Source: a virus
Taxonomy: Duplodnaviria > Heunggongvirae > Uroviricota > Caudoviricetes
DNA: 8,520 bases
Direction: 5' to 3' (one strand)
IMG/VR virus record: IMGVR_UViG_2563367003_000003
The notes below the pieces were generated by a model that worked only from the letters and a program-made list of their open reading frames with translations, was not told the origin of the DNA and made no database searches. The position numbers were made by a program, and so were the translations under genes. Position 1 is the stretch's first letter, and each line of letters begins with the position of its first letter. Positions 1-7,440 of the stretch are shown here, piece after piece.

Positions 1-1053
1 ATGACGTTACCACTAAGAGATTACTATCCTATTGAGCGCGCGGCAAAGTTATTAGACTGCGATATTGATGATCTTATTCATTGGGCTGTGACAGGCTGCA
101 TTCGTATTTGTATAAAAATTGAATCTGCATATGGAGTATTAAATATCCCAGATGAAAAAGATGTGGTTAATTTCGATTGTCTGCGTAAGTTTCTGGATTC
201 AGAACCATGTAAATCACGGTTATCTGACCTTGATGCCATTTCAGAAAGGGCGGCAGAACACCATGGTTTTAATTATATAAAAACCAAGTCGAGAATTATA
301 TTTGATTCAATGTGCGAATCTCTAAGTCATTCATATGTAGCGCCCAAATTTGGTGACATAGCAATTGATACTGCATTTGCTTTGTTAAATTATTATAACA
401 GGGGGTTATATTATGGGGAAAATTATCACATATATAGTGTATATCGAATAGCAACGGATGAAAGAGCTGTGGCAGTTGTACCACCAGTATTTAAAGGTAT
501 TCAAGAAAAATACCATAAGTATTTTGTTGAAATAGGCGGTATTTTCGCTTTGGGGGGAAGTTTTTTTGCCAACTATGATTTTAATAAGAAGTTTAAAGCC
601 AACCGAATAATTAATAGCAATATTATAATTGCTTCTGACGTTGATATACATATAGGAGTAATTGTTACTGAGGATGTTTCTTTTGATATTGGTGATTTAT
701 ATATCTTAAAGAGTGATTTTTTAAAAATACAAAATGCTACAAGCTCCAATAGCGAGTTAAGAAAAGATTATGTTAATCCATTGGCAGACACTTTATATTT
801 GTGTGCGGGTAACAATATATTAAGCTCTGAGGATGGAGAGAAAGATATATGCACCAATAAAAACAATATAGAACGATTATCTAAAACAATGAAGGATTTT
901 TTTCGTGCGATGCTTGTTATTCATTATAAAGAACTCGAAAACAATCCGGTAAAACTTGCTGATATATTGACCGCGGAAGCAAAAGAGGCAGGACTCAATA
1001 TGCGCTTTGATAAAAGTACTATATCAAGATGGATTAAGGCATCATCTCAGTAA
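1..1053 (+). CDS. Hypothetical protein, 350 aa, AT-rich cargo-like gene of unknown function; weak HTH-like segments at both termini
   Basis: Long uninterrupted ORF from the track. By eye it is clearly more AT-rich (mid-30s % GC in sampled 60-nt stretches) than the primase and integrase genes (about 50%). N-terminus (YPIERAAKLLDCDIDDLIHW) and C-terminus (KLADILTAEAKEAGLNMRFDKSTISRWIK) look like helix-turn-helix segments. No catalytic motif recognised. ATG at position 1, so the true start could lie upstream of the window. Confidence 0.6.
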   Translation: MTLPLRDYYPIERAAKLLDCDIDDLIHWAVTGCIRICIKIESAYGVLNIPDEKDVVNFDCLRKFLDSEPCKSRLSDLDAISERAAEHHGFNYIKTKSRIIFDSMCESLSHSYVAPKFGDIAIDTAFALLNYYNRGLYYGENYHIYSVYRIATDERAVAVVPPVFKGIQEKYHKYFVEIGGIFALGGSFFANYDFNKKFKANRIINSNIIIASDVDIHIGVIVTEDVSFDIGDLYILKSDFLKIQNATSSNSELRKDYVNPLADTLYLCAGNNILSSEDGEKDICTNKNNIERLSKTMKDFFRAMLVIHYKELENNPVKLADILTAEAKEAGLNMRFDKSTISRWIKASSQ

Positions 1054-1148: not shown

Positions 1149-1469
1149 ATGACTCAATCCGCATTCATTCCACCAACTCCAGAACAGCGCCGCACCATAC
1201 TCGCCGAGTATGGTTTTGACTGCGAAGAACGCATCAGGGAAGAGAAGTGTAAAAAAATGACCACGCTTTCACGCTCCCGGCGCTGGGAACTGGAGAAGAT
1301 CGGTGCTTTTCCTCCCCGTCACTCTTTGGGGCGTTGCTCATGTACCTGGCTGTTAAGTGATGTTTTGTGGTGGCTACGTAATCCGCCAGTTATTGCCAAA
1401 GTGAATAACCCATACGAAAACGCCAAAAAGAAAAGGGAGAGGGAATCCGGTAGCGCCAGAGTTGAATAA
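1149..1469 (+). CDS. alpA: AlpA/Vis-family prophage regulatory protein (HTH excisionase-like), 106 aa
   Basis: Core MTTLSRSRRWELEKIGAFPPRHSLG...W...DVLWWL follows the AlpA pattern (G.SR...W...G.FP...G...W...D..W) as I recall it from E. coli CP4-57 AlpA. Strong SD GGGGGA 3 nt upstream of the ATG. Has a ~30-aa N-terminal extension relative to minimal AlpA proteins. Confidence 0.7.
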   Translation: MTQSAFIPPTPEQRRTILAEYGFDCEERIREEKCKKMTTLSRSRRWELEKIGAFPPRHSLGRCSCTWLLSDVLWWLRNPPVIAKVNNPYENAKKKRERESGSARVE

Positions 1470-1570
1470 GCCCGGGCGGCTTATTGCAGCCCATCGCTTG
1501 GCGGCAAAACTTACTGATGTGAACACGTTGCTACACGTGAGGGGGAGAGGTCGGGCGCTGACAGCAGAGC

Positions 1571-1601
1571 AAAAAAAAGAAGCTCGCTAAAGCCAGCGAG
1601 C
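1571..1601 (-). terminator. Rho-independent terminator oriented for minus-strand (leftward) transcription
   Basis: Read on the + strand: A8 tract (1571-1578), then GCTCGCT (1582-1588), loop AAAGCC, AGCGAGC (1595-1601). On the minus strand this is a 7-bp GC-rich hairpin followed by a U8 run. There is no U-tract on the + strand side. Confidence 0.55.
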
Positions 1602-1725
1602 CAACCAGTCAAGGATGTGCATTTAGTGCACCTGAAATCAACAATAAGAAACAATAGGCAGAAATGATTATGGCTTTTTTACTCTTAAAAATCAATTACT
1701 CAGCGCAATCGCGCAAAAATAATTT

Positions 1726-1765
1726 GCAATATTGCTTGACTCGCTTTTTTGTCATGGCGTATCGT
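1726..1765 (+). promoter_or_regulatory. Candidate sigma70 promoter for the small-gene/primase operon, with an operator-like palindrome abutting the -35
   Basis: TTGACT (1736-1741), 18-nt spacer, TATCGT (1760-1765). Perfect 10-bp palindrome GCAATATTGC (1726-1735) directly 5' of the -35; further GCAAT half-sites at 1704-1708. The upstream part of track ORF 1664-2191 has no RBS and is better read as leader. Confidence 0.35.
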
Positions 1766-2017
1766 TTGCCCGCACCTCATAAAACAGGTGCCGGGTTTGA
1801 CAGCCTGAACAATCAAGCGGGTAGCCGCTATATTTCCGTAATGCGGTTTTTTTGTGCCCGTAATTCCACCCTACCCCGTATTATGGCGGGGCGTAATGGG
1901 GGAGCCTTTGCGCTCGCTGGTTCCTTGATTGCCAGTCTGTCAACCCTGTTACGTCCCGCCACCATGTTTGACAGCGTGCTGGCGAGACTCCGTAAACTTA
2001 ATCAAGGAGCCGCCAAA

Positions 2018-3150: not shown

Positions 3151-3185
3151 ACCCCACTGCAAAAGGTGCAGTGGGGTGGAGTTTT
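3151..3185 (+). terminator. Strong stem-loop (11-bp stem) with a short U-run, between the 101-aa gene and the primase start; possible terminator or attenuator
   Basis: ACCCCACTGCA (3151-3161), loop AAAGG, TGCAGTGGGGT (3167-3177), perfect complement. Followed by GGAG then TTTT (3182-3185), so the U-tract is 4 nt from the stem and not canonical. The hairpin contains the GTG at 3166 that the ORF track uses as the primase start. Confidence 0.4.
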
Positions 3186-3189
3186 ATAT

Positions 3190-5865
3190 ATGAAATCTGA
3201 CATCAGAAAAGAGATTATTAACCGTCTTATCCGTGATTACAACTTCAAAGAAGAAAATAACTACCTCCGGTATGGTGTTTGTCCGCAATGTGGAAAGAAA
3301 GAGTTGTTTACCAGCCTTGAAAGGCCGTACATCGTACACTGCGGGCGTGAAAATAAATGCGGTACAGACCTGCTGACTAAAGAACTTTACCCGGATGTGT
3401 TTTCATCATGGTCAGATCGCTATATCAGTACGAAAGATGAACCATACGCAGCGGCGGCAGCTTATCTCCTGGAGGCACGCAATATTGCTACAGAGCCACT
3501 GAAGGGGGTATTTACCCAGGAGCGATACAAAGACAAGGAAAGCGGCGAACAGGCCGCTACTGTGCGTTTTACGCTGGCTGACGACGTGTGGTGGGAGCGC
3601 ATCATAGACCGACCGGAACGCTTCGAACGGAAGGCGAATTTTTCCGGCAGCTACAAGGGGTTGTGGTGGGCTTATCCGGGAGCAGATTTAAGCAAGGCCA
3701 AAGAAATCTGGATTTGTGAGGGTATCTTTGATGCCATCAGCCTTAACCAGAATGGCATTGCGGCCGTTTCTGTCATGTCTGCCGTGAGCTACCCTGATAA
3801 GGCACTGGAAGAGCTGGCGAAGCTGTGCGGGGATAATCCCCGTCCGGTTATCGTGTGGGCGCTGGATAACGGGCGTGCAGGTGAGCGTTACGCGAAAAAA
3901 CATGCAGAACGCAGCGCCGAAGACGGCTGGAGAACGGCAGCGGCGTTGCCAGGTAAAAACAACAATAAACGCGACTGGAATGATTTACACATCGCCGGAA
4001 AGCTGCGTGGCCATGATGTGAAAAGATACCGTTATTACGGTGATTTATTGCTGGCGAAATCTCCAAGAGATAAGGCACTAATAATGTTTTCCTTTCGTGA
4101 GCGGAAGGAATTTCATTTTACTTTTGATAACCGTGTTTTCTGGTTCAAGCTGGACATTGAGCGCCATATGAAGGCTGTTGAGCGTGTCATTAATGAGCGA
4201 AATGTTGATGAGGATGAAGCGCGCAAAATTGCACTTAAGGAATCTGGTGCAGTAAAAGAAATCGCAAACTGTAACCCAGCGCCGCTTTATTACATTCGAA
4301 ATAATGACACGGATGAAGCATGGTATTACTTCCGTGTTACGTTCCCGGATGGTGCTACGGTGAAAAACACCTTTACATCAGGACAATTAACATCCTCATC
4401 TGAATTTAAAAAACGCCTGTTACACGTGGCAAAAGGCGGTATTTATACCGGAACGACTACGCAGCTTGACGCATTAATAAAAAATGACCTTCCCGCAATA
4501 AAAGAGGTTATTGGTCAGGATTTTATCGGATACAACAAGGCGATTGGGGCATGGCTGTTTAATGATATTGCTGTTTACAAGGGAAAAACTTATGAAATCA
4601 ATGACGAGGATTATTTTGAAATTGATGGCATAAACGCAAAACCATTAAGCGAAAAACCCACATTACAGATTAACTACAAAAAACCGGATGAATTTACAGC
4701 GTCCTGGGTGGAAGATCTCTGGCTGGCTTTTGGTGAAAAGGGAATTATTACCCTGGCTTTCTGGTTGGGCTCCCTGTTCAGCGAACAAATCCGGGATAAA
4801 GAAGAATCCTTCCCTTTCCTTGAAGTCACCGGAGAGCCCGGAACGGGCAAATCAACATTGATTGATTTTTGCTGGCGGCTGTGCGGTCGTGACAACTACG
4901 AAGGAGTTGATCCAACCAAAGGATCAGAGGCGGGCTGGAAGCGCACCTTTGGACAGGTCGCCGGATTGCCTGTTGTTCTGATTGAAGCAGACCGGGGAGA
5001 CAATGCGCAAAAAAGAGGTGCGTTTGACTTCGATAACCTGAAAAGCCTCTATAACGGTGGCGGTATCGGTGTTCGTGGGGTTAAGGCCAACAATAACAAC
5101 ACCTATGACCCGGATTTTAAGGGCGCTATCGTGATTGCGCAGAATGCGCGGGTAAATGCCTCGCCGGCAATTATTGAGCGCCTGATACGCATATACACCG
5201 ATAAAAAACGCCATTCACCTGATACCCGACTGGCGGCGAGACGGCTGGAACTCTACCCCGTCGAGAAGGTATCGGGGTTTATTCACCGGGCGGTAAGTCA
5301 GGAACGGGCGATTATGCAAACGTTCCTGGAAGTATCGCCCGCTGAAACGGAACGCCTTTGCGGATGCGAAAATATTCGCCATCCCCGTATTGCCAAAAAT
5401 CACGCGCAACTTATCGCGCTGGTCAGGGCGCTGAAATGCGTTATCGATATCCCGGATGAATGGCTTGATGCCACATGTCTGGAACTGGAACAAATGGCAA
5501 CGGCGCAGGTTAAAGCGGCGGCGGCTGACTTGCCAGAAGTGATGGAGTTCTGGGAGGCGTTCGACTTCCTGGACGGCATAACAAAATACGGTGTAAACCA
5601 TTACGGCAAGGGATGCCGCGAAGGGATTGCTATCAGTATTCCGCAACTGGCACAGGCTGCCGCCATTCACCGCGTGGAGATCCGAACCGATCGCGAAATG
5701 ATTGAGTTGCTCGGAGCTGGGCGTTCCCGACCGTTGACAGGCCGTAAAACCATTCGTAGTGAGGTGTCCAGACAGGCAAACGCCGGAAAAGGAGTAGCCG
5801 AAGCCAGAGAGCCGGAAGTACTGAAATGCCGGATATTCAGTTACAAGGAGGTCACCGAAAAATGA
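3190..5865 (+). CDS. Bifunctional DNA primase/helicase, P4 alpha-like replication protein (zinc ribbon + TOPRIM-type primase + P-loop NTPase)
   Basis: Track ORF 3166-5865 begins with GTG inside the hairpin; the first ATG at 3190 has SD GGAG (3178-3181). Motifs: zinc ribbon CPQCG...HCGRENKCG (about nt 3279-3363), TOPRIM-like EGIFDAISL (about 3715-3744) with ALDNGRAG (about 3859-3882), Walker A GEPGTGKST (about 4832-4858), Walker B-like VVLIEAD (about 4970-4990). Architecture matches P4-family primase/helicases. Confidence 0.85.
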   Translation: MKSDIRKEIINRLIRDYNFKEENNYLRYGVCPQCGKKELFTSLERPYIVHCGRENKCGTDLLTKELYPDVFSSWSDRYISTKDEPYAAAAAYLLEARNIATEPLKGVFTQERYKDKESGEQAATVRFTLADDVWWERIIDRPERFERKANFSGSYKGLWWAYPGADLSKAKEIWICEGIFDAISLNQNGIAAVSVMSAVSYPDKALEELAKLCGDNPRPVIVWALDNGRAGERYAKKHAERSAEDGWRTAAALPGKNNNKRDWNDLHIAGKLRGHDVKRYRYYGDLLLAKSPRDKALIMFSFRERKEFHFTFDNRVFWFKLDIERHMKAVERVINERNVDEDEARKIALKESGAVKEIANCNPAPLYYIRNNDTDEAWYYFRVTFPDGATVKNTFTSGQLTSSSEFKKRLLHVAKGGIYTGTTTQLDALIKNDLPAIKEVIGQDFIGYNKAIGAWLFNDIAVYKGKTYEINDEDYFEIDGINAKPLSEKPTLQINYKKPDEFTASWVEDLWLAFGEKGIITLAFWLGSLFSEQIRDKEESFPFLEVTGEPGTGKSTLIDFCWRLCGRDNYEGVDPTKGSEAGWKRTFGQVAGLPVVLIEADRGDNAQKRGAFDFDNLKSLYNGGGIGVRGVKANNNNTYDPDFKGAIVIAQNARVNASPAIIERLIRIYTDKKRHSPDTRLAARRLELYPVEKVSGFIHRAVSQERAIMQTFLEVSPAETERLCGCENIRHPRIAKNHAQLIALVRALKCVIDIPDEWLDATCLELEQMATAQVKAAAADLPEVMEFWEAFDFLDGITKYGVNHYGKGCREGIAISIPQLAQAAAIHRVEIRTDREMIELLGAGRSRPLTGRKTIRSEVSRQANAGKGVAEAREPEVLKCRIFSYKEVTEK

Positions 5866-6872
5866 CGATAAAGAAGTTGGTTAACGGTAAGTTTGCTGTG
5901 GACGTGCGGCCTGCAGGAGCAGAAGGAAAAAGATTCAGGCGGCGATTTGATACTCGTGGTGAAGCAGTGGCGTATGAACGCCATGTTCTGATGCACTACC
6001 ACAACAAAGAGTGGGTCGAAAAGCCCATTGAACGTAAAGCGTTAAGCGATCTTCTGGAATTATGGTGGGCGTATCATGGCAAGAATCATCGTTATGGAGC
6101 GATGACGCGGGTAAGAATTGAAGCTGTTCTTTGTGATATGCGCGAACTTGGGATAAACAGAAGCGATCATTTAACCCGGAAAAATATTATCAGATATCGA
6201 CTTAAATTAATGAATCGTGGAATTAAACAGTCAACAGTAAATCGCTATTGTGCCATGATGAGCGGTTTCTTTGAAAAGCTGATTGATGCTGAAGAGTTTG
6301 CGGGTAATAACCCGTTTCGCGAGATACGTAAGTTAAACATTAATCAGCCAGAAATGGCTTATCTTGCACATGATGATATTTCCAGGCTAACCGCGCTTTT
6401 ATCTGGCGATAATCTTAAGGCTGTATTGTTGTGTCTGGCTACAGGTGGGCGCTGGGGTGAGATTGCCAATATTAAAGGTGAGCACATAATTGGCGGAAAG
6501 GTTATTTTTATGAAGACAAAGAACGGCTCAAGGCGGGTCGTTCCAATCGCTAAAGATCTTGAATCACTGGTCAAAGTAAAGGCGACCGGAAGATTAATGA
6601 AACCTAATTATGCAACTGTCAGAAGTGCAATAAGGACTGTGCGGCCTGATTTACCCGTCGGTCAGTCTGTGCATGTTTTACGGCATACCTTTGCCACTCA
6701 CTTTATGATTAATGGTGGAAACATCATCACATTGCAGAAAATACTAGGACACAGCACTATTCAGCAGACGATGACTTACGCGCATTTTGCACCGGATTAC
6801 CTGGCAGATGCCATGAGATTTAACCCGGTAGCCAACATAGTGATCACCGAAGAAAAAGAGCCAGCAGAGTAA
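5862..6872 (+). CDS. int: Tyrosine recombinase, P2-Int-family integrase, 336 aa
   Basis: N-terminus MTIKKLVNGKFAVDVRPAGAEGKRFRRRFDTRGEAVAYE and the catalytic region (GGRWGEIANIK; HVLRHTFATHFMINGGNIITLQKILGH; TMTYAHFAPDYL with the tyrosine nucleophile) closely parallel P2 Int as I recall it. Near-consensus SD AAGGAGGT (5845-5852). The ATG at 5862 overlaps the primase TGA (5863-5865) as ATGA. The track start at 5826 is an upstream in-frame extension. Confidence 0.9.
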   Translation: MTIKKLVNGKFAVDVRPAGAEGKRFRRRFDTRGEAVAYERHVLMHYHNKEWVEKPIERKALSDLLELWWAYHGKNHRYGAMTRVRIEAVLCDMRELGINRSDHLTRKNIIRYRLKLMNRGIKQSTVNRYCAMMSGFFEKLIDAEEFAGNNPFREIRKLNINQPEMAYLAHDDISRLTALLSGDNLKAVLLCLATGGRWGEIANIKGEHIIGGKVIFMKTKNGSRRVVPIAKDLESLVKVKATGRLMKPNYATVRSAIRTVRPDLPVGQSVHVLRHTFATHFMINGGNIITLQKILGHSTIQQTMTYAHFAPDYLADAMRFNPVANIVITEEKEPAE

Positions 6873-6901: not shown

Positions 6902-6927
6902 AGGTCAGTTTCCCGCTGACCTTTTTT
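6902..6927 (+). terminator. Rho-independent terminator downstream of int
   Basis: AGGTCAG (6902-6908), loop TTTCCCG, CTGACCT (6916-6922), then TTTTT (6923-6927). An A-rich run precedes it (CAAAAGA), so it may act in both directions. Confidence 0.7.
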
Positions 6928-7120: not shown

Positions 7121-7440
7121 GGGGGGGGATGCGCAAAGCGGTTACAACGGTTACAAATTTAAAATCACTTATTTTTGCATTATATATCAATACATTATAA
7201 CTGGTCGGATGAGTTACAAAAGCGGTTACAACGCGGTTACATGTAACCGTTTTGTTAGGTTACAGGCGGTTACAGGTTAAGTTTTTAATTGATTGATAAT
7301 AAAGTGCTTTTTGAAACCTGTAACCGTTGTAACCGCAGTGTAACCGCAAAGCGGTTACAAACAATATCCATTAAAATCATGCTGTTAAGTGGTGTTTTTG
7401 ACTGTTGTAACCGTTGTAACCGCTTTGCGCACCCCCCACC
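7121..7440. repeat. Iteron array of GGTTACA/TGTAACC heptamers around an AT-rich core, bounded by 36-bp near-perfect inverted repeats; candidate replication origin and/or att arm-site region
   Basis: Forward GGTTACA at 7140, 7149, 7224, 7235, 7258, 7268, 7353 (plus partial GTTACA at 7213); reverse TGTAACC at 7242, 7319, 7328, 7339, 7406, 7415. Left repeat 7121-7156 (GGGGGGGGATGCGCAAAGCGGTTACAACGGTTACAA) matches the reverse complement of 7405-7440 at 34 of 36 positions, with the inner 26 perfect. Internal palindromes GGTTACATGTAACC (7235-7248) and TGTAACCGCAAAGCGGTTACA (7339-7359). AT-rich segments at 7157-7210 and 7275-7318. Confidence 0.8.

Follow-up and report, generated by a model that had tools for sequence, protein, structure and literature searches.

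What does an intrinsic terminator terminate on a strand that carries no gene nearby? This question is raised by a short hairpin located between alpA and the P1-type RNA immunity leader (with isrK-like and C4 RNAs, followed by icd) of an 8,520-nt stretch of viral DNA, which is referred to below as the window. An earlier note on this DNA had pointed out the hairpin and suggested that a leftward non-coding transcript ends there. In the computational analysis described here, such a transcript proved to be the best explanation of the hairpin, and several alternatives could be weighed against it.

The window is part of a P4-like satellite prophage

The 8.5-kb window was found to be 100% identical to part of a 12-kb island located between gcd and hpt in Escherichia coli N50. 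The island contains an integrase gene, an AT-rich ORF of 350 aa (window positions 1 to 1053), alpA, a non-coding leader, an icd-like gene, several small ORFs, a gene for a P4-alpha-type primase, a second integrase gene, a repeat-rich region, and an ogr/delta zinc-finger gene, and in its part outside the window a P2-family major capsid gene and mazEF. In view of this gene content, the window belongs to an E. coli satellite prophage that is P4-like and presumably dependent on P2. P4-like satellites are present in a large share of the genomes of Enterobacterales (PMC8628076).

Some properties of the island were noted independently of the hairpin. The satellite possesses two tyrosine recombinase genes (island, 12386 to 24904 of locus L001; window, 5862 to 6872), a P2-family major capsid gene of its own, in front of which lies a hypothetical gene, and, with mazEF, a toxin-antitoxin pair; recognisable sid or psu genes were absent from the island. 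The 350-aa ORF has a G+C content of 0.31 to 0.36, compared to about 0.47 for the rest of the window, and matched no Pfam or NCBIfam family. The ORF, which separates the integrase gene from alpA, probably represents cargo, perhaps with a function in defence. The heptamer GGTTACA occurs 14 times in the whole window (0.95 copies expected), and 13 copies are clustered in both orientations within 280 bp (positions 7140 to 7421), between the second integrase gene and ogr. By analogy with the ori and crr repeats of P4, this array probably represents origin iterons or a region required in cis. Just upstream of the primase gene, an 11-bp GC-rich hairpin with T runs on both sides (positions 3151 to 3177) forms a bidirectional terminator-like site, which overlaps the longest primase ORF (GTG start codon at 3166).

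A minus-strand terminator between alpA and the immunity leader

On the plus strand, the site comprises eight A residues (1571 to 1578), GA, the first stem arm GCTCGCT (1582 to 1588), the loop (1589 to 1594), and the second stem arm AGCGAGC (1595 to 1601). Read on the minus strand, it becomes GGCUCGCUG-GCUU-UAGCGAGCU followed by UCUUUUUUUU. The stem has seven Watson-Crick pairs, five of them G-C, and two additional G·U pairs (1602/1581 and 1594/1589), which form on the minus strand only; the loop measures 4 to 6 nt. In the consensus scan, the hairpin was listed with nine pairs, a loop of 4 nt, and the tail TCTTTTTTTT. The 7-bp GC-rich hairpin and the U8 tract (1578 to 1571 on the minus strand) reported previously were thus found again, and the coordinates given for them, 1571 to 1601, were correct to within one base. 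On the plus strand, the hairpin is followed by CAACCAGTCAAGG, which does not contain a T run, and the site is therefore one-directional. The minimum free energy of the hairpin was −13.8 kcal/mol for the minus-strand RNA compared to −11.7 kcal/mol for the plus-strand RNA.

Both strands of the window were subjected to a strict terminator test, which called for a stem of 7 bp or more without mismatches, including four or more G-C pairs, a loop of 3 to 8 nt, and, no more than 2 nt away from the stem, a tail with seven or more T residues in 9 nt. Only two sites passed, the minus-strand hairpin at 1582 to 1601 and a plus-strand hairpin at 6902 to 6922, which follows the second integrase gene, whereas 400 dinucleotide-preserving shuffles gave a mean of 0.0075 strict sites per window. 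The terminator is thus beyond chance, and its position and polarity are conserved, as described in the next section. With its G+C-rich stem, short loop, U tract confined to the minus strand, occurrence beyond chance, and conservation, the hairpin has the properties of an intrinsic terminator, and we consider it very likely that the hairpin and the U8 tract are real and act on leftward transcription.

Two minus-strand ORFs are present nearby, at 1374 to 1526 (50 aa, GTG start codon, antisense to alpA) and at 1511 to 1654 (47 aa, TTG start codon), but neither is credible; the latter passes through the terminator. The letters themselves, the scan, the strict test with shuffles, and the ORF list therefore all confirm the earlier claim of a minus-strand intrinsic terminator without a minus-strand gene. 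The scan listed no plus-strand terminator-like site between 1469 and 2811, and alpA has no plus-strand terminator of its own ahead of the leader. The gene shielded from leftward transcription by the minus-strand terminator would be alpA. The hairpin sequence did not occur in the text of the literature searched. The coordinates of the features are summarised in Table 1.

Table 1. Features of the window around the minus-strand terminator
Feature	Position	Strand	Basis and remarks
alpA	1149-1469	+	Pfam PF05930, E = 3.3e-07
U8 tract	1571-1578	-	Read from sequence and scan; preceded by UC (1580-1579)
Terminator hairpin	1581-1602	-	1582-1588 pairs with 1595-1601
Body of the predicted RNA	1603-1660	-	Folds; internal hairpin and U-rich 5′ part; no conserved ORF
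Predicted sigma-70 promoter of the leftward unit	1667-1695	-	Scan; weight matrix; conservation
Leader promoter	1736-1765	+	TTGACT, 18 nt, TATCGT; scan; weight-matrix rank 2
a1/b1 targets	1759-1811	+	Rfam
isrK-like (seqA-like) RNA with own terminator	1772-1853	+	Rfam RF01394, 52.2 bits (gathering score 50)
C4/CI-type immunity antisense RNA	1879-1966	+	Rfam RF01695, 74.6 bits

Position and polarity of the terminator are conserved in two lineages

Relatives of the site were drawn from complete E. coli genomes, viral contigs, metagenome contigs, and one locus of a contig scan. This primase-based scan yielded a single locus, which was near-identical and came from Escherichia sp., and the sample of relatives lies within Escherichia. 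The block extending from about 1547-1558 to 1700 was present in 57 of the 5,426 complete E. coli genomes and always adjoined the icd leader. Three viral contigs (L022, L025, and L026) that matched a 19-nt anchor were unrelated chance matches and were dropped. The 22 unique sequences with the leader-promoter block fall into two lineages, designated type A and type B.

In type A, alpA is located upstream, and the stem of the GCTCGCT hairpin was invariant in every relative. At the terminator, the sequences differed in the loop, in the inner closing pair, and in the U run, which comprised six to nine residues and never fewer. The inner closing pair is G·U or A-U on the minus strand, corresponding to a C·A mismatch or a U-A pair on the plus strand. 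In type B, the sister lineage, a P2-family capsid gene replaces alpA directly upstream of the leader block. At the same place as in type A, about 10 to 15 nt after the capsid stop codon, the type B sequences contain the hairpin CGGCCCG...CGGGCCG, which is accompanied by TTTTCTTTT on the minus strand only and runs into UUUUCUUUU, likewise confined to that strand. Three type B architectures were found, all of them stable; their loops measure 9, 6, and 3 nt, and their minus-strand folds have stems of 10, 10, and 12 pairs, respectively. For all seven hairpin variants, the minus-strand RNA was more stable than the plus-strand RNA, the difference being 0.1 to 5.1 kcal/mol, as some G·U pairs of the minus strand correspond to C·A on the plus strand. 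That a terminator specific for the minus strand was kept at this position while its sequence changed is the strongest argument for leftward transcription ending there. In the MAFFT alignment, the hairpins of types A and B are three columns out of register, and a count of compensatory pairs after a fit by hand would have been biased.

The homology between types A and B ends near position 1660, just beyond the predicted RNA start described below. In the TOE17 subtype, positions 1611 to 1650 are replaced by other sequence. Types A and B were aligned over their full length by MAFFT, with U-rich motifs common to both and TOE17 looking intermediate, which suggests that the unit is old and diverged rather than newly inserted. 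The body of the predicted RNA is poorly conserved between the lineages, its 5′ part being variable.

A predicted divergent promoter and a predicted small RNA

Upstream of the terminator we infer a promoter, a start point, and an RNA of defined size, and for this RNA a role. A search with a rough position weight matrix, an approach already proposed in the earlier note, placed the best leftward promoter candidate fourth among the 16,970 positions of the window. It consists of the −35 hexamer TTGATT (1695 to 1690), a 17-nt spacer, and the −10 hexamer CATAAT (1672 to 1667) and is oriented back to back with the leader promoter, which is located just upstream of the start of the isrK-like RNA at 1772. 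Among the 22 unique relatives, none of the 12 hexamer columns varied, compared to 9 of the 17 spacer columns; the probability of finding no variable hexamer column by chance was about 0.002 in a hypergeometric calculation, the hexamers being situated inside a generally well-conserved block. Promoter-like hexamer matches were no more common in the window than in shuffles (17 versus 16.4), and it is therefore solely the rank and the conservation pattern on which the promoter call is based. The conserved hexamers overlap the start of an annotated plus-strand ORF (ATGATTATG at 1664 to 1672), which is probably over-extended.

Transcription from the predicted promoter would start near 1659 to 1661. 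The transcript had previously been expected to be antisense to the leader, which it need not be: as the start at about 1660 lies upstream of the leader promoter, the predicted RNA would be transcribed divergently from the leader, and the only transcripts to which it would be complementary are those reading through from alpA or the capsid gene. Read-through from alpA is plausible, because no plus-strand terminator follows this gene.

A length of about 85 to 90 nt is predicted for the RNA of type A, compared to 78 nt for that of the TOE17 subtype and about 70 nt for that of type B. Folding revealed an internal hairpin at 1617 to 1631 (GUGCA-CUAAA-UGCAC), in which a single change, located in the loop, was observed among the type A relatives; positions 1632 to 1656 were variable. 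The U8 tail and the single-stranded U-rich stretches (GUUUCUUAUUGUUGAU in type A, GUUUUCUUUUGCUGAU in type B) are features that would be expected of an Hfq-type sRNA. Neither the ORF list nor the relatives provided a conserved or credible ORF in the leftward unit. A small peptide as its product was rejected, as the sole ATG ORF within the RNA comprises 11 codons and lies inside the segment that is replaced in TOE17, and as the type B RNAs do not contain any AUG. No Rfam family was found on the minus strand, even at E = 10; the best match, to suhB/mmgR, reached 19.3 bits compared to a gathering score of 41, and the sister lineage gave no better result. On balance, we slightly favour the view that the hairpin terminates a discrete small RNA of about 85 to 90 nt, which starts at the promoter at 1695 to 1667.

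The neighbouring immunity leader

Lysogeny control in P4-like satellites has been described as based on isrK/seqA-like and C4/CI RNAs. Comparison of the window (1793 to 1817, 1925 to 1950, and 1965 to 2011) with loci L002 to L035 revealed that C4 immunity is combinatorially hetero-immune. One box occurs in two forms (TTTGACAG or TTTAGCAG), and the other in at least seven (ATCAAG, TAAGAG, GACAAAG, AATTGG, GTAGAAG, ACCAAAG, and TTAGAG). Each box co-varies exactly at three places, namely, in the C4 loop and in both targets, one located upstream and one over the icd Shine-Dalgarno sequence, and the box forms are reassorted irrespective of the upstream block.

The annotated "Icd-like protein" of about 175 aa (1664 to 2191; PGAP CDS 1670 to 2191) spans the leader promoter and the genes for the isrK-like and C4 RNAs. 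The Icd profile NF033153 covers only residues 127 to 169 of this ORF, and the true icd start codon is probably the ATG at 2018, which is preceded by AAGGAG. The 118 codons upstream of this proposed start are open in every relative.

Two further observations concern this region. Between the divergent promoters, 7 of the 13 columns of a 13-bp patch (1704 to 1716) vary within a nearly invariant block, and some of the variants are perfect palindromes (GCGCAATTGCGC); the patch could be an operator with diversifying specificity or merely an unconstrained spacer. The top promoter-like score in the rough matrix was obtained for a plus-strand site between C4 and icd (1968 to 1998; TTGACA, 19 nt, TAAACT), whose −35 hexamer belongs to a C4 target box. 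This site may either result from the box sequence or serve icd as an internal promoter.

Possible roles of the leftward unit

In the model that we propose, the control region of a P4-like satellite contains a very short leftward unit, for which the hairpin and the U8 tract would serve as Rho-independent terminator. Transcription of this unit would begin at the sigma-70 promoter at 1695 to 1667, back to back with the immunity leader promoter, and RNA polymerase would synthesize the non-coding RNA of about 85 to 90 nt and stop at 1571 to 1578, before entering alpA and the integrase gene in antisense direction. With its internal hairpin, U-rich single-stranded stretches, and long U tail, the RNA would be built like the usual enterobacterial small RNA. 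Two functions of the unit appear most likely. It may confine divergent transcription from the control region, and it may oppose read-through from the upstream gene into the immunity/replication operon by convergent transcription and RNA pairing. The latter is possible because the RNA would be perfectly complementary to upstream read-through transcripts.

A regulatory role of the RNA's own is much less certain. A duplex scan against 13 translation start regions and RNAs of the window gave results no better than those of shuffles, 65% of which were as good, and complementarity to phage P2 extended over 10 to 12 nt compared to means of 10 to 10.7 nt for shuffles. No conserved seed was found in the RNA when the two lineages were compared. 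The variable RNA body argues against a sequence-specific role in trans and for a role that needs only the presence of the unit, which could be to stop antisense transcription into alpA and int or the capsid gene or to oppose read-through. Unlikely in our opinion is a more ambitious reading, according to which the leftward unit is the third regulatory RNA of an all-RNA immunity switch and controls excision or replication by pairing with alpA or capsid read-through transcripts, or acts in trans on host or helper mRNAs. As part of that reading, an sRNA would fill the slot held elsewhere by a small DNA-binding protein or a sim operon.

Alternative explanations for the hairpin

The fallback idea of the earlier note, that the terminator insulates alpA from antisense transcription, is still a live reading. 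In its pure form it assumes neither a dedicated promoter nor a functional RNA; the hairpin would stop spurious or pervasive leftward transcription, e.g., from the promoter-like site at 2068 to 2040, and thereby keep antisense transcripts that arise in the AT-rich control region or leader out of alpA and int (or the capsid gene). The retention of the terminator in lineages that differ in the RNA body is in agreement with such a function. Moreover, no other strong minus-strand terminator was found between 2068 and 1602, so that any leftward transcript from the leader would end at the hairpin, and further minus-strand promoter-like sites are present at 1755 to 1728 and at 2068 to 2040, the latter ranking sixth. 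However, invariant hexamers at 1695 to 1690 and 1672 to 1667 separated by a variable spacer are not the pattern expected for an unused site, and most type A copies have the internal hairpin at 1617 to 1631 in unaltered form, a substitution in the loop being the one exception. We regard pure insulation as somewhat unlikely.

The terminator of a small RNA is also to be compared with a function of the hairpin on the plus strand, where it might stabilise the 3′ end of the alpA or capsid transcript against exonucleases or serve as a factor-dependent terminator that lacks a U tract, the U tract of the minus strand being incidental. The distance of the hairpin from the stop codon of alpA (about 110 nt) and of the capsid gene in the sister lineage (about 10 to 15 nt) would suit such a function, neither gene is followed by a plus-strand terminator, and the stem also folds on the plus strand, with −11.7 to −18.6 kcal/mol. 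Yet a plus-strand T run behind the stem is missing in both lineages, an A-rich run, i.e., a U tract of the minus strand only, precedes it in both, and every variant is weaker on the plus strand, where G·U becomes a C·A mismatch. A plus-strand function is thus very unlikely.

We consider it highly improbable that the hairpin is the relic of a lost leftward protein gene of the ribbon-helix-helix-like, YlcI/YnfO-family, or P1 simABC type. Such genes are indeed found in the same slot of related satellites, each with a minus-strand terminator beside the upstream plus-strand gene, and P1 carries its sim operon there. Nevertheless, when the leftward genes of three of these satellites (L017 to L019) were compared by tblastn and blastn with window positions 1400 to 1800 and with the sister lineage, no similarity was detected in the leftward unit (best E value, about 0.4). 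The one exception, a 28-nt blastn match (E = 4e-06), falls into the common leader at about 1771 to 1798, outside the unit. Besides, two diverged lineages have retained the unit, and the changes in it leave the hairpin intact, which would not be seen upon decay.

An additional C4 target, suggested by the plus-strand motifs CTGACAG (1558 to 1564) and CAGTCAAGGA (1605 to 1614), which flank the hairpin, resemble the two C4 target boxes, and would be drawn together by it, is extremely improbable, as is the version in which C4 acts on alpA read-through or the minus-strand RNA mimics the C4 loop. By sequence reading, 10 pairs are possible between CAGUCAAGGA and the C4 loop UCCUUGAUUG, but the missing covariation with the immunity type refutes both a target and a mimic: covariation between the C4 loops and their two known targets extends over at least 7 × 2 combinations, whereas the motifs beside the hairpin are constant whatever the immunity type (e.g., in L005, L008, L010, and L011 compared to the window), and the variant at 1558 to 1564 (GACAG or GGCAG) does not track the box type.

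Comparison with known systems

The leftward unit is unannotated, and we regard it as belonging to the small non-coding units of prophage control regions that end in an intrinsic terminator, rather than to a new kind of system. If the RNA is a mere early-terminated by-product, the finding amounts to an ordinary insulator. If the proposal is true, a conserved leftward non-coding unit is added to the components of the control region in one satellite subfamily. The hairpin also marks a transcript boundary missed by annotation pipelines and flags the 175-aa Icd-like ORF as probably over-extended.

With regard to small RNAs, the predicted transcript resembles IsrK of Gifsy-1 (PMC4825925) and DicF in its size of 70 to 90 nt, in the succession of a stem-loop and a terminator hairpin with a U tail of at least seven residues, and in its location on horizontally acquired DNA beside a phage regulatory region. 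It differs from them in that it has no Rfam family match and no conserved seed and that its 5′ part varies between lineages. The literature on small RNAs of satellites and prophages yielded only unrelated systems (the Pas sRNAs of Stx phages and svsR).

Phage P4 (PLL-vis, PLE, seqA, CI RNA, seqC) has alpA/vis, the leader promoter, the isrK/seqA-like RNA, the C4/CI-type RNA, the small ORFs, and the primase in common with the window and in identical order, as well as RNA-based immunity without a protein repressor. In P4, however, only about 36 nt separate the vis stop codon (8764) from the PLE promoter (8728 to 8699), and no opposite-strand terminator is present. This gap leaves no room for a divergent unit, which places the leftward unit of the window outside the P4 paradigm.

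The immI region of phage P1 is similar in layout. Its rightward leader, with the order c4, icd, ant, is homologous to that of the window (about 79% identity over positions 1791 to 1976), and the C4 RNA, the target boxes, and icd are shared. A predicted leftward sigma-70 promoter, PsimA, is located just upstream of, and back to back with, the c4 promoters P1c4/P2c4. P1 differs in that the leftward unit is a protein operon (simA, simB, simC) and that its c4 promoter is under the control of a C1 operator; the predicted leftward unit of the window, of only about 90 nt, has no ORF, would terminate at once, and shows no sequence similarity to sim.

A parallel in position is provided by the E. coli satellites with an icd leader mentioned above (L017 to L019). 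They use the same slot, with an alpA-like gene on one side and the icd leader on the other; their layout is likewise divergent, and a minus-only terminator abuts the upstream plus-strand gene. Their leftward units, by contrast, contain one or two genes for small proteins of 59 to 61 aa, one of the YlcI/YnfO family and one ribbon-helix-helix-like by sequence reading, whereas the unit of the window is non-coding and not homologous to these genes. A recurrent layout thus consists of an upstream plus-strand gene, a minus-only terminator, a leftward unit, and a divergent leader, of which the family represented by the window has the shortest, non-coding version. If our proposal is true, the slot divergent from a c4-type leader has several uses, as it would hold the sim operon in P1, small protein genes in related satellites, and an RNA only in the family described here.
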